Shown piece by piece: positions 45,713 to 54,561 of a stretch of DNA of 64,000 nt. The notes under the pieces are model-generated. The model was not told the origin of the DNA and did not search any database. It was given only the letters and a program-made list of their open reading frames with translations. The first letter of the stretch is position 1. The number at the start of each line of letters is the position of its first letter. The DNA is taken from the NCBI GenBank assembly GCA_043819795.1, contig JBDREN010000049.1, forward strand, positions 2,379-66,378, in the 5' to 3' direction. The DNA comes from Elusimicrobiota bacterium (GTDB lineage Bacteria; Elusimicrobiota; Elusimicrobia; UBA1565). A program made the translations under genes and the position numbers.

Positions 45713-47005
45713 ATGACATCCGAAACCCGTGGGTACGCGATCGTCTTGAGCGCGCTCCTGCTTCTGGCCGGGGGAGCCGGGGCCGGTCATGCGGCGCCGG
45801 ACAAGCTGGGGAAGGTCAACGTCCTGGGCGTCTGGAAAGGCGAGGAGCTGCGCAGCTTCCGGGCCGTGGTGAAGCCGTGGGAAAAGGAGACGGGCGGCAA
45901 GATGCGTTTCGAGGGCAGCCGGGACCTGTCGGCCGTCTTGACGGCTCGGGCGGCGAAGGGCGACGCGCCCGACGTCGCCATCCTGCCCAATCCCGGCCTC
46001 ATGGTCCAGCTGGCGAAGACGAAGAAGCTCGTCCCCCTCGACGGGATGCTGGATATGACGCATTTCGAGGCGGAGTACGCGCGGACCTGGATCGAGCTGG
46101 GATCGGTGGAGGGCAGCCTCTACGGCGTCTTCTACAAGGCCGCCAACAAGAGCACGCTTTGGTACAGCCCCCAGCAGTTCTCCGACCACCAGTGGCCGAT
46201 CCCGCGGACCTGGAAGAGCCTCCTGGCGGTGTCGGAAAGGATCCACGAGGAGGGCAAGACCCCCTGGGCCCTGGGCCTGGAAAGCGGGGATGCGAGCGGC
46301 TGGCCGGCCACCGACTGGATCGGCGAGATCCTGCTCAAGGAGTACGGCCCGGAGAAATACGACGCGTGGGTCGCGCATGAGATCCCCTGGACCGACGAAG
46401 CCGTGCGCTCGGCGTGGGAGAATTTCGGGCGGATCGCGCACGGCGAGGGATACGTGGCGGGAGGCGCTTCCGGGATATTGACCACCGGCTTCCGGGAAGC
46501 GGCGTACCGGGTCTTCCGGAAGCCACCGAAGGCGTATCTCTACTTCCTCGGGAGCTTTACCAAGAAATTCATCACCGAGCGGTTCTCCGGCCTGATGCCG
46601 GCGAAGGACTATTCCTTCATCCCGTTCCCGGCCTTGAACCCCGCATACAGCGGGGCCGTGACCGGCGGGGCGGACGTGGTCGTCGTGTTCAAGGACAACG
46701 CGACCACGCGCTCGTTCATCAACTATCTCGCCTCGGCCGAGGCTCAGGAGATCTGGGTCGAGCGCGGGGGCTTCACGGCCGTCAACCGGAAGGTCAGGCT
46801 CCACAGCTATCCCGACTGGGTCTCCGCGCGGATCGCCTTGCAGCTGTCGAACGCCAAGGTCTTCCGCTTCGACGCCGACGACCAGATGCCGGCCGAGGTC
46901 CAGAAGGCCTTCTGGAAGGGAGCGCTCGACTACGTCCGTGATCAGGCGAGCCTGGACCGCGTCCTCGAAGACATCGAAGCCGTCGCCCGGAAGGCCTACC
47001 GGTAG
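45713..47005 (+). CDS. Extracellular solute-binding protein (ABC transporter SBP family 1-like), secreted
   Basis: Signal peptide and ~430 aa periplasmic-binding-protein fold. No cognate permease or ATPase genes in the window. Confidence 0.65.
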   Translation: MTSETRGYAIVLSALLLLAGGAGAGHAAPDKLGKVNVLGVWKGEELRSFRAVVKPWEKETGGKMRFEGSRDLSAVLTARAAKGDAPDVAILPNPGLMVQLAKTKKLVPLDGMLDMTHFEAEYARTWIELGSVEGSLYGVFYKAANKSTLWYSPQQFSDHQWPIPRTWKSLLAVSERIHEEGKTPWALGLESGDASGWPATDWIGEILLKEYGPEKYDAWVAHEIPWTDEAVRSAWENFGRIAHGEGYVAGGASGILTTGFREAAYRVFRKPPKAYLYFLGSFTKKFITERFSGLMPAKDYSFIPFPALNPAYSGAVTGGADVVVVFKDNATTRSFINYLASAEAQEIWVERGGFTAVNRKVRLHSYPDWVSARIALQLSNAKVFRFDADDQMPAEVQKAFWKGALDYVRDQASLDRVLEDIEAVARKAYR

Positions 47006-47177
47006 CGTTGAAGCGGCCCGCTCGTAATGGGAAGGCCGTTCCCAAGCGAATCCGCGAGAGAGTGAGCGTCCTGGCCGGGTCGCCGCGTCTGTGTCTCCCC
47101 GGAAGGAACGAATGAATGCGTAGGCCGCGGGGCGAGCTTGCGGCGCTGGAAAGAATCCGCCGGTGTTGAACGCCGGT

Positions 47178-47220
47178 CCGCACGGCTGGGGATAGATCGG
47201 GAAAGTCCCCAGCCGTGCGG
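47178..47220. other. Perfect 15-bp GC-rich hairpin (ccgcacggctgggga / tccccagccgtgcgg, 13-nt loop) followed by TGCTTTG
   Basis: Read directly. Could be an intrinsic terminator with a weak U-tract, or part of a structured RNA. Confidence 0.5.
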
Positions 47221-47470
47221 TGCTTTGAGGCCTGCCCGAGTATCCTAGCCCGAATTCCCCGTCTGGATCGCTGGATTCGACGCAAGATGCCGGGACTTTT
47301 CTGTGCGAAATGTCTCGACCGCACGGTTTCCTGACAGGGAGTGGAAGCGGCATTTCCTCGTGGTGACGCTTGGTCATGCCGCAGCGGGTACGCTCTCCAA
47401 ATTCCGCGTTGAACTGGCCTCGGCCTCTTGCATCTCGGTCCCACGCGCCCAACTGGGGAATCCGGGCCAG

Positions 47471-47773
47471 GTGTAGTGAACCATAAATCCCTTGACATTC
47501 GGGCGATCGATTTCGGCCTCCGGCTAGGCGCGGGGAGCGCGCATGCCCGCAGGTATGTAAGCGACGAGCAACGACGCCGGAAGCCAAAAGCGCCCGCCCC
47601 CTCCTCCTTGACGCGGACAGCGGCGAAATTCTATGGAAAGGGGAGGCCCGATCCCGGCCGATTCCCACGTTGCTCCTCGGTTGCATAGCTTAAGCCATGC
47701 GCCCTCATCGCGCCTCGAAATCGACTCGGGCTCGGGCCTCCAAATGACAAGGGATTTATGATTCACTACACTA
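47471..47773. mobile_element. Candidate MITE-like element: ~303 bp bounded by ~32-bp imperfect terminal inverted repeats (29/32 core identity, extended similarity with one 12-nt indel)
   Basis: Left arm gtgtagtgaaccataaatcccttgacattcgg. Right arm ccaaatgacaagggatttatgattcactacac is its near-exact reverse complement. The interior is non-coding. Two mirror-image 86-aa ORFs on opposite strands are artefacts of this symmetry. Confidence 0.45.
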
Positions 47774-47941
47774 GCGATGGCCACTTACTGATTCGGATGG
47801 GGCAAATCCTTTCTATAGCGCAGTATTGTTAAATATGAAACATGTGGCGCTGCTAAACGTTGCAAAAGAGAAACTAGAAGCAGTTTGGAGGCATTCTGAA
47901 CTGGTCAAAAAGAACGAAAAAAACGCAACTATTGGTGGCTA

Positions 47942-47970
47942 TTGCAAAATGGAACGATATCTGCTATAAT
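47942..47970 (+). promoter_or_regulatory. Sigma-70-type promoter (TTGCAA, 17 bp spacer, TATAAT) for the downstream sigma-54 activator gene
   Basis: TTGCAA at 47942-47947, exactly 17 nt of spacer, TATAAT at 47965-47970, ~40 nt upstream of ATG 48011. Embedded in an unusually AT-rich stretch. Confidence 0.55.
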
Positions 47971-48010
47971 AGAACCATAGCATACGTTTCCAGCCGCCGG
48001 GAGTTGATAT

Positions 48011-49369
48011 ATGCAGTTTGAAGGCCAAGGTCGTTTTTTCGAGACCATCCTCCGTTGTGTCGCTGACGGCGTGTTCACGGTGGACCGCGACTGGCGTATC
48101 ACCTCCTTCAATAAGGCGGCCGAGCGCATCACGGGCATGAGCGCCCGGCAGGCCATGGGCAAGAGATGCTCCGAAGTCTTTCACGCGGACCTCTGCGGTG
48201 ACGGCTGCGCCATCAGGCGGGCTCTCGAGACCAAACGCGAGGTCATCGAGCAGCCGGCCAATATCCGCGACCAGCGCGGCAGGGCGATCCCGATAAGCAT
48301 CAGCGCGGCCGTGCTTCGGGGGGAGGACGGGACCGTCCTCGGCGGGGTCGAGACGTTCCGCGACCTGTCGGCCATCGAGCAGCTCAGGCGCGAGATCCGG
48401 AGCCAGTACACCTTCGAGGAGATCGTCGGCAAGAGCGAGGCTTTCCAGAAGGTGTTCTCCATCCTGCCGGACGTCGCCGCCAGCGAGAGCACGGTCCTCA
48501 TCGAAGGCCCGAGCGGCTCCGGCAAACAGCTCCTGGCGCGGACCATACACAACCTGAGCCCCCGCCGGGATCGGCCTTACGTCGTGGCGAACTGCGGGAT
48601 GATGCCGTCCGGCCGCTGCGCGTCCGAGCTTTTCGGCCACGTGCGAGGCGCCTTCAAGGACGCCAAGGGGGACCGGCTCGGCCGCATCGCGCAGGCCGAA
48701 GGGGGGACCATCTTCCTGGACGAGATCGGCGACCTGTCGATGGAGAGCCAGGTCAGGCTCCTCAAGGTCCTTCGGGACGGAGAATACGAGCCGCTGGGCG
48801 GCGTCAGTCCCCGGCGCGCCGATGTGCGCGTGGTCGCTGCCACGAGCAAGAGCCTGCCGGATCTGGTCGGGCGGGGGCTTTTCCGCGACGATCTCTACTT
48901 CCGCCTGGCGGTGGTGCGGCTGAGCATACCGCCCCTGTCCGAGCGGCGCGAGGACATCCCCTGCCTGGTCGAGCACTTCGTCCAGCGCTTCAACGCCAAG
49001 CGCGGCAAGAGCATCCAGGGGGTGACGCCCGCGGCCATGGAGCTTCTCATGCGCCATGGTTTTCCCGGGAACGTGCGCGAGCTGGAGAACCTGATCGAAT
49101 GCGGCTTCGCTCTATGCCACGGCGGATGGATGGACGTCGGCCATCTGCCCGAGGATCTGAGGCCGTCGCGGCGGCCGGGCGCCGCCGGGCGCCGCCTCGA
49201 GGGCGCGTCCCTGCTCCGGCACATCGAGGCGGACGCGGTCCGCGCCTCCTTGGGGCGGAACGCGGGCCATCTCGGCCGCACGGCCGAGGAGCTGGGCATC
49301 AGCCGGACCACGTTGTGGCGCAAGATGAACAAGTACGCCATCGAAGCGGACGAGTTCCGGGCCGGTTGA
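48011..49369 (+). CDS. Sigma-54-dependent transcriptional activator with N-terminal PAS sensor (no receiver domain) and C-terminal Fis-type HTH
   Basis: PAS (VFTVDRDWRITSFNKAAERITG) with a Cys cluster (CSEVFHADLCGDGC). AAA+ sigma-54 interaction domain (LIEGPSGSGKQLLA, GAFKDA, ESQVRLLKVL...FRDDLYFRL). HTH_8 (ELGISRTTLWRKMNKY). Confidence 0.85.
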   Translation: MQFEGQGRFFETILRCVADGVFTVDRDWRITSFNKAAERITGMSARQAMGKRCSEVFHADLCGDGCAIRRALETKREVIEQPANIRDQRGRAIPISISAAVLRGEDGTVLGGVETFRDLSAIEQLRREIRSQYTFEEIVGKSEAFQKVFSILPDVAASESTVLIEGPSGSGKQLLARTIHNLSPRRDRPYVVANCGMMPSGRCASELFGHVRGAFKDAKGDRLGRIAQAEGGTIFLDEIGDLSMESQVRLLKVLRDGEYEPLGGVSPRRADVRVVAATSKSLPDLVGRGLFRDDLYFRLAVVRLSIPPLSERREDIPCLVEHFVQRFNAKRGKSIQGVTPAAMELLMRHGFPGNVRELENLIECGFALCHGGWMDVGHLPEDLRPSRRPGAAGRRLEGASLLRHIEADAVRASLGRNAGHLGRTAEELGISRTTLWRKMNKYAIEADEFRAG

Positions 49370-49388
49370 CCCGGGGGGAGAGAACGCG

Positions 49389-50762
49389 GTGAGCACCCAA
49401 AGGAAATACAGCTACTTCGTCGAGCCCAAGGCGCTCGAGGTCGCGGAGCGTCCGCGAAAATTCCTCATGGCATTCGCGGCCGTGCTGAAGAACGCCAGCT
49501 ACGGGCTGGCGCTCGATACGTACGCGCGCCTGAGCACCAAATGCGGGCGTTGCGTGGCCTCCTGTCAGCTCTATCAGACCACGCGCGAGGAGCGGGACAT
49601 CCCCTGCCATCGCTCCGAGCTCCTGCTGCGGGTGTACCGGCGGTACTTCACGCATTCGGGCCGCCTCAAGGCCAAGATATTCAGCGGTTTCGAGTTGACG
49701 GACGCCTACTTGGACGAGATGGGCGAGGCCTACTACCGCTGCACCGCCTGCCGGCGGTGCAAGGCCACCTGCCCCATGGGCATCGACCACGCCCTGGTCA
49801 CTCATCTGGCCCGGTGGCTGCTCTCGGAGATCGACGTCATCCCCAAGGCGCTGTTGGTGGCGACGCGCGAGCAGCTCGAGGGCGTCGGCAATACCTCGGC
49901 CATCCCGGTCCCCGCGCTCAAGGACACCTGCGAGTTTCTGGAGGAGGAGCTCAAGGAGATCACCGGCGTGGACATCAAGTTCCCCATGGATGTCGAGGGC
50001 GCCGAGTACGTCTTCTTCCCGGCGGTCTCGGACTATCTGCTCGAGGCGGACACCCTCATGGGCAACGCGGCCGTCATGCACGTCACCGGCGGGTCGTGGA
50101 CCATCGGCACGGGCAACTACGACGGCATCAACTACGGCCTGTTCTACAGCGATCGCATGATGGAGCGGATCGTCAACAACGTCGTCAAGGAGGTCCGCCG
50201 CCTCAAGGGGAGGAAGGTCCTCGTCGGCGAATGCGGCCACGCCACTCGCAGCGCCTGGTACGTGCCGGCCTTCGGCGGCCCGGACGCGCCGCCGGTGGTC
50301 AATTGCTTGCAGTACGCCCACCGGATGCTCGAGGCCGGGAAGCTCCCCCTGAAGAAAGAGCTTATCAAGGAGCGGGTCACCTATCACGATCCGTGCAATA
50401 TCGCCAGGAGCGGGCGGATCACCGAGGAGCCTCGGGAGCTCCTTAAGGCTATCTGCGGGGACTTCGTGGAGATGACGCCGAACCGCGCGGAGAACTACTG
50501 CTGCGGCGGAGGCGGCGGCACGGTCTCCATCGACGAGATCCGGGCTTTCCGCACGGGTCTCATGGGAAAGCGCAAGGCGGATCAGATCCGCGCGACCGGC
50601 GCCAAATACGTCGTGTCGCCCTGCGCCAACTGCAAGAAACAGCTCCGCGAGGTCTGCGAGGACAACGGCCTCAACGAGGTCGAGGTCGTGGGCCTGCACG
50701 ACCTGCTGCTGAAGGCGATCGACTTCGGGGTCCCCGAGAAGAAAGGAGAGGACGATGGGTGA
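49389..50762 (+). CDS. DsrK/HdrD/HmcF-like iron-sulfur oxidoreductase (CCG-domain protein)
   Basis: Ferredoxin-type CxxCxxCxxxCP motifs (CGRCVASCQ; CTACRRCKATCP) and C-terminal CCG-domain motifs (PCNIA...YCCGGGGG...SPCANC). Confidence 0.75.
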   Translation: MSTQRKYSYFVEPKALEVAERPRKFLMAFAAVLKNASYGLALDTYARLSTKCGRCVASCQLYQTTREERDIPCHRSELLLRVYRRYFTHSGRLKAKIFSGFELTDAYLDEMGEAYYRCTACRRCKATCPMGIDHALVTHLARWLLSEIDVIPKALLVATREQLEGVGNTSAIPVPALKDTCEFLEEELKEITGVDIKFPMDVEGAEYVFFPAVSDYLLEADTLMGNAAVMHVTGGSWTIGTGNYDGINYGLFYSDRMMERIVNNVVKEVRRLKGRKVLVGECGHATRSAWYVPAFGGPDAPPVVNCLQYAHRMLEAGKLPLKKELIKERVTYHDPCNIARSGRITEEPRELLKAICGDFVEMTPNRAENYCCGGGGGTVSIDEIRAFRTGLMGKRKADQIRATGAKYVVSPCANCKKQLREVCEDNGLNEVEVVGLHDLLLKAIDFGVPEKKGEDDG

Positions 50763-51465
50763 GCTAGAGATCTGGACCGAGTGGGCGCGCGGGCCGCTGT
50801 TCAGGGCCGCGCTGGCGTTCATGATCCTGGGCCTTCTGCGTCACGCGGCGTTGACCATATGGGAGCTGGCGGGGATCATGTACCGCGCCGGCGACAAGGC
50901 CTTCCCGTGGAGGCGGGCATTCTCCGCCACGCTAAAATGGCTTTTCCCGGTGGGGCAGATCAAGAACCGTGTCCTCTACAGCCTGACCACGCTCGGCTTC
51001 CATGCCGCCGTCATCATCGTTCCCGTTTTTCTCGCGGGCCACGTCGCGCTCTGGGAGCGGGGCACGGGCCTGTGCTGGCCGACCATCCCCAACGGCGTGG
51101 CGGACGTGCTGACGATCATGGCCGTGCTCGCGGCGGCCTTGCTCGTGGCGGAGCGCGCGGCCGCGCGGGACTCCCGGGCGCTGAGCCGCTTCCAGGACTA
51201 CGCCTTGCCCCTGCTCGTGGCCGCGCCCTTCGCGACCGGCTTCCTGGTCATGCATCCGGCTTTAAACCCGTTCGGCCATGAAGCGACGATTCTGGTCCAC
51301 GTGTTGAGCGCGGATATTCTGTTCATCCTCATCCCGCTGACCAAGCTGAGCCACATGATCCTGCTCCCGGGCACGCAGATCATCTCCGAGCTGTCCTGGC
51401 ATTTCCCGCCGGACGCCGGCAGGAAAGTGGGCGTCGATCTCGGGAAGGAGAAGCAACCCATATGA
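50755..51465 (+). CDS. DsrM/HmcE/NarI-like di-heme b membrane subunit
   Basis: Five TM helices with conserved His pairs placed as in the nitrate-reductase gamma family. Translationally coupled to flanking genes. Confidence 0.65.
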   Translation: MGELEIWTEWARGPLFRAALAFMILGLLRHAALTIWELAGIMYRAGDKAFPWRRAFSATLKWLFPVGQIKNRVLYSLTTLGFHAAVIIVPVFLAGHVALWERGTGLCWPTIPNGVADVLTIMAVLAAALLVAERAAARDSRALSRFQDYALPLLVAAPFATGFLVMHPALNPFGHEATILVHVLSADILFILIPLTKLSHMILLPGTQIISELSWHFPPDAGRKVGVDLGKEKQPI

Positions 51466-52595
51466 AGAAGCCCGTCGCCATCCTTACGGACACGACGCTC
51501 TGCACCGGCTGCGAGGAATGCGTCGCGGCGTGCAAGAAGGAGAACGGCCTGGGCGAGGATCGCCGGTGGCGCTGGCAAAGCTCCGTGAGCGAGCTTTCCG
51601 CGTCGCGCTTCACCGCAATCATCCGTCGGCCCGGCAACCGCTACGTCCGCCAGCAGTGCCGGCACTGCGTGGACCCGGCGTGCGTGAGCGCCTGCATCGT
51701 GGGCGCGCTGCGGAAGACGGAAGAAGGCGCGGTGGTCTACGACCAGGATAAGTGCATCGGCTGCCGTTACTGCATGCTGGCCTGCCCCTACGGGATCCCG
51801 CGCTACGATTGGGAGAAGCCGATCCCGTACATCAGGAAGTGCACGCTCTGCTATGACAGGCTTGAGGAGGGAAAGGCCCCCGCCTGCGTGGAGGCCTGCC
51901 CCGAGAAGGCGACGATATTCGGCTCCCGCTCCGATATGCTGGCCGAGGCCCATCGGCGCCTGAAACGGCATCCCGGGAAGTACGTCCAGAAGGTCTACGG
52001 GGAACGCGAGGTGGGGGGGACGTCGGTCCTCTACATCTCGGACATACCCCTTGATTTCCTCGGCTGGCAGACCGATCCCGGCGAGCGGCCGCTGCCGGAC
52101 CTCACGTGGGCCGCCCAAAGGAAGATCCCGGCCGCGGCTCTGGGGGTGTTCGGGCTCATGGGCGGCACCTACTGGGTCATCGGCCGGAGGATGCAGGCCG
52201 CGGCGCGGGCGGGCCTGAAAGACGCGCCCCGGGAAGGGGACGCCCCGTCCGTGGGGCACGGGCATCCGGAGCAGGGAGGGGCCCTCTCCGGCCTGAAGAC
52301 GGCCCTGTGGATGCCTCTCGGCGTGGTGGCGGCCGTGACCATCGTGCGTTTCGCGCGGAATCTGGACGCGGCCGCGAGCCTCGGGGACGGAGCCCTCTGG
52401 ACCCTGTGGCTCGCCCTCGGCGTGGCGGGAGGCACCGGTCTCGGGGCGGGGATCCATTGGCTCGCCGCCCGCCGCAAGAAGGCGCCGGAGGAGGACGCGG
52501 AGCCCGAGGAAGGAACTCCCACCCCGCCCGTCCAGGCGTCGAAGACTTCCGTTCCCAAGCAGATCGCGGGCGACGGCGGCCCGAAGGAGCGATAG
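51462..52595 (+). CDS. DsrO/HmcB/PsrB-like four-cluster [4Fe-4S] ferredoxin-type subunit with C-terminal membrane anchor
   Basis: Four CxxCxxCxxxC(P) motifs (CTGCEECVAAC, CRHCVDPACVSAC, CIGCRYCMLACP, CTLC...ACVEACP) and 2-3 C-terminal TM helices. No obvious Tat signal. Confidence 0.7.
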   Translation: MKKPVAILTDTTLCTGCEECVAACKKENGLGEDRRWRWQSSVSELSASRFTAIIRRPGNRYVRQQCRHCVDPACVSACIVGALRKTEEGAVVYDQDKCIGCRYCMLACPYGIPRYDWEKPIPYIRKCTLCYDRLEEGKAPACVEACPEKATIFGSRSDMLAEAHRRLKRHPGKYVQKVYGEREVGGTSVLYISDIPLDFLGWQTDPGERPLPDLTWAAQRKIPAAALGVFGLMGGTYWVIGRRMQAAARAGLKDAPREGDAPSVGHGHPEQGGALSGLKTALWMPLGVVAAVTIVRFARNLDAAASLGDGALWTLWLALGVAGGTGLGAGIHWLAARRKKAPEEDAEPEEGTPTPPVQASKTSVPKQIAGDGGPKER

Positions 52596-52599
52596 GGCG

Positions 52600-54561
52600 A
52601 TGATGCCTCTGAGAAGAATCAAGAGCCTGCTCTGGTTCGTCCTGGGCGCGGGCATGGTGACCATCGCCGCGCGGCTGCTCACCGGGCTCGGCGCGGTCAC
52701 CAACCTGTCCCACAACGTTTCCTGGGGCCTGTGGAACGCGGTCAAGATCAGCATCGTGCCCCTCTCGGCCGGAGGGTTCGTTTTGGCTGCGATCGTCTAC
52801 GTCTTCCATATGGAGAGGTTCCGTCCCGTGCTCCGTTTGGCCATCCTTACGGGGTTTTTGGGCTACTCGACCTTCGCCACGATGCTCATGTTCGATATCG
52901 GGGTGCCCTACCGGATATGGCATCCCATGGTCTACTGGCAGCACCATTCCGTGCTCTTCGAAGTGGCGTGGTGCGTGATGCTGTATCTGACCGTGCTGGC
53001 CCTCGAGTTCTTGCCCAACGTGCTGGAGCATCCTCTGCTGAAGCACCCCCTGCTCCAGAAGGGATACAAGCTCCTGAAGAGCGCGACCGTACCCCTGGTG
53101 ACCGCGGGGATCGTGCTGTCCACGCTGCACCAGTCGTCGTTGGGCTCGCTGTTTTTGATCGTCCCCCACCGTCTCGATCCCTTATGGTACAGCCCGCTGA
53201 TACACGCGCTCTTCCTGGTCTCCGCCGTCGGGATGGGGCTTCTGGTGATCGCCGTGGAGGCGGTCCTGATCGAGCGTCTCTACGGCGTCAAGGCGCCGCT
53301 GGACGTCCTCGCCCCTTTGGCCCGCGCGGGCGCGGTGGTGATGGCCCTCTTCTTGGCCGTCAGGCTGGCCGACCAGGTCGCTCGCGGGGTGCTCCCGGGT
53401 GCTCTGAGCACATCTCCGATGGCGGCGGCATTCGTCCTTGAGACTCTGATCGCCTCGATCGTGCCGCTGCTGCTTCTGCGCAGGAGCGTCCGCGAGAGCC
53501 GCGGGGGCCTGTTCGCCTGCTCTCTTTCCGCGGTGCTGGGAGTCGTCTGGTACAGGTCGAACGTCGCCTTGCTGGCCATCGACTGGGGCGAGGCGGCCTA
53601 TTTCCCGGCGTGGACCGAGTTCGCCCTGTGCTTCGGCATACTGGCCGGGTCGGGCTTGGTGTTCTTCTTGCTGCTGGAGAACCTGGACATTTATTACGGG
53701 CCGGCCGCATCCGGCCGTGACCGCGAGCCGCAGGTGCCGGGGTTGGCGTTCGAGGCTTGGCTGGCGGACGCGAGGATCACCGCGGCCAGGCGCTATTCCC
53801 TGTTCATCGTGGCGGGCGCGGCGGCGGCCGTCTTGTTTCTCCCCGAGGGCACGGTGTTCGGAGCCAGGCCCGCGGACACGCCGGCGGCGCAGGCCCGGCG
53901 GGTCCGGGGCTTGTCGGTCCGGACCGGCGGCGGACGCGTCAGCACGCTGCGCCTCGGCGAGAGGCCGGTCCCCGCTAAGGGCCGAGTGAAGCGCCTGCCG
54001 CTTTACCTGATTGACGGCGACCGCGATGAGGACGCGGTCCTCTTCGATCACGCGGGCCATGTCAAGCGGGCGGGCGGCGAGAAGCGCTGCGGGGTGTGCC
54101 ATCACCTGAACATGCCGCTCGACGAGAACACCTCCTGCCATGAATGTCATCGCGACATGTACGAGCCCGCCTCCGTGTTCAGCCACGCATCGCATGTGCG
54201 CGAACTCGGGGGGAACGCGGGCTGCGTCAAGTGCCATGAGGATCCTCTCGTGGTGAAGGACCGCCGGACGGCCGTCGCTTGCGGGGAATGCCACTCCGAT
54301 TCGGCGGCAAAGGGCTCCTTCGTCGAGGCGCCGGGGCCGAGGTGGGGGGCCGCGCCGGGCTACGCGGACGCGATGCACGGCCTCTGCGAGAGTTGTCATA
54401 AGAAGAAGGCGAAAGAAGAGCCGGGCCGTTATCCCGCGGCGCTGGGGCGTTGCGCCGCCTGCCACGATACGGACCGCCCCATGGATATCCGTCGGATGGC
54501 GCCGCGAAGTGATAGAATGCGGGCCATGCGCGCCGAGGAACGCGGGCTCTCGGGCGGCTGA
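52600..54561 (+). CDS. NrfD/PsrC/DsrP-like polytopic membrane subunit fused to a C-terminal hexaheme cytochrome c domain (DsrJ/HmcA-like)
   Basis: ~10 TM helices of the NrfD family over ~430 aa, then a soluble C-terminal domain with six CxxCH motifs (CGVCH, CHECH, CVKCH, CGECH, CESCH, CAACH). Confidence 0.7.
   Translation: MMPLRRIKSLLWFVLGAGMVTIAARLLTGLGAVTNLSHNVSWGLWNAVKISIVPLSAGGFVLAAIVYVFHMERFRPVLRLAILTGFLGYSTFATMLMFDIGVPYRIWHPMVYWQHHSVLFEVAWCVMLYLTVLALEFLPNVLEHPLLKHPLLQKGYKLLKSATVPLVTAGIVLSTLHQSSLGSLFLIVPHRLDPLWYSPLIHALFLVSAVGMGLLVIAVEAVLIERLYGVKAPLDVLAPLARAGAVVMALFLAVRLADQVARGVLPGALSTSPMAAAFVLETLIASIVPLLLLRRSVRESRGGLFACSLSAVLGVVWYRSNVALLAIDWGEAAYFPAWTEFALCFGILAGSGLVFFLLLENLDIYYGPAASGRDREPQVPGLAFEAWLADARITAARRYSLFIVAGAAAAVLFLPEGTVFGARPADTPAAQARRVRGLSVRTGGGRVSTLRLGERPVPAKGRVKRLPLYLIDGDRDEDAVLFDHAGHVKRAGGEKRCGVCHHLNMPLDENTSCHECHRDMYEPASVFSHASHVRELGGNAGCVKCHEDPLVVKDRRTAVACGECHSDSAAKGSFVEAPGPRWGAAPGYADAMHGLCESCHKKKAKEEPGRYPAALGRCAACHDTDRPMDIRRMAPRSDRMRAMRAEERGLSGG

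Follow-up and report, generated by a model that had tools for sequence, protein, structure and literature searches.

A 1005-bp gap at 47006-48010 of the window (the whole stretch of DNA that was analysed, 64 kb long) separates a gene for an ABC-type solute-binding protein from a PAS/sigma54-interaction/HTH_8 activator gene, which is followed by a DsrMKJOP-like operon. Within this gap lies a 301-bp intergenic unit, 47471-47771, the whole of which is an imperfect palindrome, and between the unit and the activator gene lies a group of regulatory sites with counterparts at orthologous loci (Table 1). NCBI protein MFH1723720.1, which belongs to a MAG with the label Elusimicrobiota bacterium, matches the activator (hereafter the regulator) at 100% identity. 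The next homologues of the regulator, found in Gemmatimonadota, Latescibacterota, Planctomycetota and other MAGs, are 68-72% identical. The phylum label Elusimicrobiota, at 67% GC, may deserve checking. Orthologous regulators (loci L044, L045/L046, L047, L048 and L049) precede CCG/DsrK-like, 233-aa, Fer4_11/DsrO-like and NrfD-plus-cytochrome-c genes, and the same operon genes occupy 49389-54561 of the window.

Table 1. Features in and around the 301-bp palindromic unit, in window coordinates unless a locus is named
Feature	Position	Strand	Remarks
ABC-type solute-binding protein gene	45713-47005	+	upstream gene
GGCCA, sole candidate direct repeat in the flanks	47465-47469, partner 47779-47783	.	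asymmetric offsets of 1 nt and 7 nt
Terminal-repeat end sequence of the 301-bp unit			GTGTAGTGAAYCATAAATCCCTTGWCATTYGG
Left terminal inverted repeat	47471-47502	.	32 bp, 44% GC
Inner left arm	47503-47573	.	pairs with inner right arm at ~70%, with indels
Foldback loop, central region of ~93 nt	47574-47667	.	weak residual symmetry (CCCCCTCCTCC vs GGGGAGG)
Inner right arm	47668-47739	.	mirror of 47503-47573
Tandem CTCGGG x2	47725-47736	.	right arm only
Right terminal inverted repeat	47740-47771	.	32 bp, 38% GC, 29/32 complementary to left arm
Weak sigma70-like match ATGACA-17-TACACT, 9/12	47744-47772	+	consensus match only; outward, inside right terminal repeat, towards regulator gene
Pair of GTTTCA-N4-TGAAAC-like sites	47826-47841 and 47859-47874	+	33 bp apart; outside the element
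Sigma70-like TTGCAA-17-TATAAT	47942-47970	+	overlaps sigma54-like site
Sigma54-like TGGAACGATATCTGCT	47950-47965	+	starts 61 nt before ATG at 48011
PAS/sigma54-interaction/HTH_8 activator gene	48011-49369	+	downstream gene, then DsrMKJOP-like operon
Enhancer-promoter module in orthologues	L044 5808-5955 and 7398-7517; L045 5366-5516; L047 5369-5521; L048 5442-5591; L049 1743-1894

The left terminal repeat, GTGTAGTGAACCATAAATCCCTTGACATTCGG, returns as its reverse complement at the right end of the unit with 29 of 32 positions matching (91%). An inverted repeat at this place had been described in the initial annotation and proved to be real: allowing at most three mismatches, the arm 29-mer occurs exactly twice in the 64 kb against 0.00 times expected from 100 dinucleotide shuffles, and in the whole window no inverted repeat within 1.5 kb ranks higher than the arm pair. 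The left arm had been placed correctly at 47471-47502, whereas the right arm had been given as 47742-47773, which is 2 nt too high. The arms had also been called AT-rich, and their GC contents are indeed low, at 44% and 38%, compared with 65% in the element interior and 67% in the window. The left arm forms an isolated AT-rich island inside a GC-rich spacer, and the right arm runs on into the AT-rich promoter region (47742-48010). The imperfection of the arms (~72%), their indels and their mid-contig position led to the rejection of an assembly artefact.

The symmetry of the unit extends far beyond its ends. A blastn self-comparison gives a 104-nt alignment between 47471-47573 and 47668-47771 at 72% (E = 5e-9), an inner inverted repeat of 48 nt aligns ungapped at 77%, and in a global alignment of the left half with the reverse complement of the right half the symmetry is recognisable nearly to the centre. 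With the 32-bp ends removed, the interior scores 24, against -25 +/- 9 for shuffles, none of which (0/500) reach that score. Weaker similarity running some 20 bp inward from the termini, as first reported, is therefore present, but its extent had been understated, given arms of 104 nt. A 12-nt insertion, CTCGGG CTCGGG, had been reported in the right arm and was found there; this tandem accounts for the 10-nt indel between the arms, and its confinement to the right arm shows that divergence of the two arms followed the formation of the palindrome. The termini match at 29/32 positions and the interior at 73/100 ungapped columns (Fisher p = 0.05), or at 73/137 when gap columns are counted (p = 5e-5). 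Termini that are more alike than the interior are expected if only the ends are constrained.

Symmetry that spans nearly the whole unit, together with a right arm that continues into the native AT-rich region at its side, would also suit a relic of local inverted duplication, in which a replication template switch or foldback of the native spacer by the AT-rich promoter region produced a palindrome that was never mobile and has no function. A palindromic interior is unnecessary for a MITE (miniature inverted-repeat transposable element) and could equally come from such a local duplication. However, had decay been uniform and neutral, the outer 32 bp would not stand at 91% beside an interior at ~70% with indels, the left arm stands as an AT-rich island in spacer of high GC content, and the symmetry ends very sharply. 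A local duplication is thus regarded as a possible but unlikely origin of the unit.

No codon-position GC signal was detected in the 1005-bp gap, whereas third-position GC in the flanking genes is 0.8-0.97, indicating that the gap is non-coding. An 86-codon open reading frame runs across the element on both strands, each translating the terminal repeat as VVNHKSL. The small reading frames that cross the element gave 0 Pfam family matches, and the 86-codon translations had no match in 5.8 billion protein clusters or in 1.84 billion representatives. Translations of these spurious frames were used as probes for miscalled reading frames in other copies of the element. The unit had been annotated as non-coding, and the lack of a codon-position signal, of Pfam matches and of homologous translations bears this out.

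The unit is predicted to fold very stably. The predicted RNA fold reaches -154.6 kcal/mol on the + strand (z -6.4) and -174.3 kcal/mol on the - strand (z -8.1), the predicted DNA fold of the unit reaches -90 kcal/mol, and z ranges from -6.4 to -8.5 across the RNA and DNA folds. According to these models, a hairpin over the whole length of the element can form. Folding into one very long stem-loop RNA had been offered as an alternative from the start, and as far as the predicted fold is concerned it is possible. Such a transcribed hairpin might act in cis on transcripts reading through from the upstream gene, as an insulator or as an RNase III site, or might be an antisense or small RNA made from the - strand. 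Apart from the stability of the predicted folds on both strands, it is favoured by the arm mismatches, which become G-U wobbles more commonly on the - strand (10) than on the + strand (3); this bias, however, is not significant (p = 0.09), and any DNA palindrome automatically folds stably. Rfam 15 returned 0 matches at the gathering score in the whole window and 0 even at E <= 5 in 46950-48060, and a scan of 46900-48150 found no intrinsic (rho-independent) terminator-like site on either strand and no promoter-like site on the - strand. Homologues of the unit, from which covariation might be read, are absent. A functional hairpin RNA is therefore considered improbable, its fold being possible and a supporting promoter, terminator and Rfam match all lacking in these searches.

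To the right of the element, the AT-rich stretch at ~47820-47970 is best read as an enhancer-plus-promoter module. Its two dyads, TTGTTAAATATGAAAC at 47826 and GTTGCAAAAGAGAAAC at 47859, match GTTTCA-N4-TGAAAC at 9/12 and 10/12 positions, respectively, and the sigma54-like site TGGAACGATATCTGCT starts 91 bp downstream of the start of the second dyad. The spacers that follow the regulator in orthologues contain a GG-N10-GC sigma54-type promoter, such as TGGCGTGGCCTTTGCC, and a pair of dyads 32-33 bp apart, the nearer of which starts 100-105 bp upstream of the promoter. In the window the module sits upstream of the regulator instead of after it; L044 shows the same arrangement upstream of its regulator, where the promoter also starts 61 nt before the start codon. 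TGAAAC reaches a density of 8.8 per kb in the orthologue spacers, compared with 0.3-1.5 per kb in these loci overall and 0.11 per kb in the window, and only six dyad matches of at least 9/12 occur in the whole 64 kb. The paired dyads probably serve the activator as its own enhancer sites (UAS), and as such would control the DsrMKJOP-like operon. The right end of the palindrome lies 54 bp to the left of this module and thus outside it.

Several further observations concern the same region. The stretch 47774-48010 is the most AT-rich of the 64-kb window (35-47% GC, against 67% overall) and coincides with the module. The interval from the dyads to the promoter, in which an IHF-type bend would be expected, includes an A-rich tract, AAAAAGAACGAAAAAAACG. 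The combination of a dyad pair and a GG-N10-GC promoter is kept across phyla in this PAS-sigma54 activator family. The regulator of the window is fused to the CCG/DsrK-like gene with a 19-bp gap (49369-49389), whereas orthologues have a promoter spacer of 185-260 bp and then a small gene (113-128 aa, Nitro_FeMo-Co-like) between the two. This small gene and the promoter spacer are missing in the window (orthologues compared: L044 7359-7924, L047 5362-5933 and L049 1728-2289).

The position of the element directly upstream of the UAS and sigma54 promoter raises another reading, in which the 32-bp arms would be paired protein-binding sites, a distal operator or enhancer, and a regulator, possibly the adjacent sigma54 activator, would loop out the intervening 270 bp to control the downstream promoter. 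Each arm includes TGAAYCAT, which agrees at 7/8 positions with the TGAAACAT motif that is enriched near orthologous regulators, and a third dyad-like site, GTTGCATAGCTTAAGC, matches at 9/12 positions in the right inner arm (47680-47695), 146 bp upstream of the first genuine dyad and one of the six sites of this quality in the 64 kb. The 47680 site, which no site of comparable quality mirrors in the left arm, may be due to chance. Against the full GTTTCA-N4-TGAAAC sequence, however, the arms match at only ~5/12 positions when compared by eye; the left half and both 32-bp arms are free of dyads scoring at least 8/12. The true UAS pair, with its conserved spacing of 32-33 bp, is outside the element, no such distal pair exists in the orthologous loci, and binding sites leave the 104-nt arm homology unexplained. 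The arms were also considered as Rex-like or activator half-sites, and these candidates were rejected after scoring against the derived dyad. Paired binding sites are accordingly judged very improbable. It is likewise very unlikely that the palindrome is a lineage-specific functional addition to the sigma54-controlled Dsr-like operon, either as cruciform or looping DNA that would recruit the activator or a second regulator through the arms and the 47680 site, or as a - strand gene for a hairpin RNA with a stem of ~135 bp.

The five distinct orthologous loci, all from other phyla, carry the regulatory module without the palindrome: upstream of the regulator none shows an inverted repeat of this kind, nor does any of them resemble the element. 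These loci also have different upstream genes, and in 4 of the 5 the spacer upstream of the regulator is 150-360 bp long, compared with 1005 bp in the window. The best match of the solute-binding protein among GTDB species representatives is 57% identical and is found in Chloroflexota MAGs, whereas the regulator matches other phyla at ~70%, suggesting that the 1-kb spacer is a synteny breakpoint. Loci that hold relatives of the upstream solute-binding protein showed no synteny and no similarity to the element. At a distance of 170 nt past the end of the solute-binding-protein gene, counted from its stop codon, a separate hairpin with a perfect 15-bp stem and a 13-nt loop (CCGCACGGCTGGGGA ... 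TCCCCAGCCGTGCGG) occupies 47178-47220. It lacks a T-run, and might serve as an atypical terminator or in RNA stability. Its identification as a REP-like repeat was rejected on account of its single occurrence in the window.

Size and ends are those expected of a MITE: its 301 bp fall inside the MITE range of 50-800 bp (PMC11602168), and its 32-bp terminal inverted repeats are longer than the minimum of 10-15 bp expected of such elements. The traces that transposition may leave were then sought around and beyond the unit. No target-site duplication of 2-10 bp abuts the arms, in agreement with the initial annotation, which had identified none; the only candidate in the flanks, GGCCA, is a match at chance level, as 20% of flank shuffles do as well. 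The element occurs once in the 64-kb window, with no second copy or solo arm, and no transposase or integrase was found among the 31 window reading frames scanned against Pfam. The terminal 21-mer TAGTGAAYCATAAATCCCTTG had 0 exact matches in 596 Gb of GTDB species representatives, JGI metagenomes and IMG/VR, collections that do not include the source MAG. The unit and each of its arms gave chance matches only in blastn searches of plasmids and phages, as did the element in blastn against 129 metagenome loci holding regulator paralogues (at most 53% identity). In the literature, the terminal-repeat strings recovered only unrelated primer sequences.

The single copy in the window, the missing target-site duplication and the lack of TAGTGAAYCATAAATCCCTTG matches in the collections scanned count against a MITE and are each in keeping with the local inverted duplication discussed above. 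The lack of database relatives is, at the same time, to be expected, given that MITE families are mostly conserved within a genus, according to a survey of 183,232 genomes (PMC11602168), and that the nearest regulator orthologue is only 72% identical.

Taken together, the 301-bp unit is most likely a non-autonomous MITE-like foldback element, present as an old and inactive insertion, a reading to which we assign a probability of roughly 0.45, that is, somewhat short of even. The initial annotation had proposed a MITE or a remnant of an insertion sequence (IS). In its favour are the sharp AT-rich ends, the size, the non-coding sequence and the absence of the unit from orthologous loci; a target-site duplication, a second copy in the 64 kb, matching ends in the collections searched and a transposase among the frames scanned are wanting, and the proposal, partly supported, stands as the best reading with membership unproven. 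As no such duplication was found, and neither a further copy nor a cognate IS was seen in the sequence searched, the element is called MITE-like and is filed under no family. Derivation from the collapsed ends of an IS is less likely.

We infer that the element was once mobile, that it had a transposase partner and that it is old. In the proposed mechanism, the two AT-rich 32-bp termini would have been bound and cleaved by a transposase that a cognate IS elsewhere in the genome provided in trans, and this transposase would have inserted the element between the solute-binding-protein gene and the regulatory region of the sigma54 activator and Dsr-like operon. The element would then have decayed in place, its interior falling to ~70%, a 6-nt tandem duplication arising in one arm and any target-site duplication being lost. 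An old, inactive copy is indicated by the divergence of the interior, by the tandem duplication confined to one arm and by the lack of a target duplication.

Since the element lies outside the UAS and sigma54-promoter module, it is probably neutral today. Its likely maximum effect would be to add a long hairpin to read-through from the upstream gene, or to provide a weak outward promoter. For the locus itself, ~300 bp of an unusually long 1-kb spacer can be set down as an insertion-like palindrome, and not as regulatory sequence common to the orthologues. The left boundary of the conserved sigma54 enhancer-promoter module for a DsrMKJOP-like redox complex is thereby fixed, which is of modest practical value. 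If the unit is a MITE, it would be the first view of one transposable-element family from an uncultured and poorly sampled lineage, whose nearest regulator orthologues are ~70% identical, and its ends could be used to find the cognate IS. The element is best described as an orphan, probably dead small palindrome, an ordinary kind of object with no known sequence relatives.

Intergenic imperfect palindromes of this general kind include the ERIC/IRU sequences of enterobacteria, which often lie 5' of genes, may carry promoter-like or IHF motifs and form hairpins in read-through RNA. The Correia or NEMIS elements of Neisseria resemble the unit in the same way, being intergenic imperfect palindromes, often 5' of genes, that may carry promoter-like or IHF motifs and form read-through hairpins (PMC3184786). 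Both groups differ from the 301-bp unit in that they number tens to hundreds of copies per genome, measure 100-160 bp and have defined target duplications (TA for Correia), none of which is seen for the unit. Similar in size are the IMU (integron mobilization unit, 288 bp) and other MITEs derived from IS, MITEAba12 among them, which share with the unit inverted repeats at their ends, an interior without coding sequence and a stable predicted fold (PMC3184786, PMC6382973). These elements are mobilised in trans by an IS transposase with matching ends, and their transposition has been demonstrated (PMC3184786, PMC6382973). They have a known cognate IS, whereas for the 301-bp unit no IS with related ends was present in the collections searched.

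Features described as typical of bacterial MITEs are AT-rich ends, a position 5' of genes and long hairpins of high stability, and a stable full-length hairpin is a classic MITE feature according to Delihas (PMC3184786). A further parallel is Chunjie of Geobacter uraniireducens, which is multicopy and flanked by 9-bp direct repeats (PMC3184786), whereas here there is one copy in the window and no flanking direct repeat. The two are likened by anatomy, not by sequence similarity. Chunjie measures 178-235 bp, has 21-bp terminal repeats and folds at -98 to -130 kcal/mol (PMC3184786); the unit described here measures 301 bp, has 32-bp repeats and is predicted to fold at -155 to -174 kcal/mol, and both are small non-coding elements with AT-rich ends, terminal inverted repeats and a very stable hairpin.
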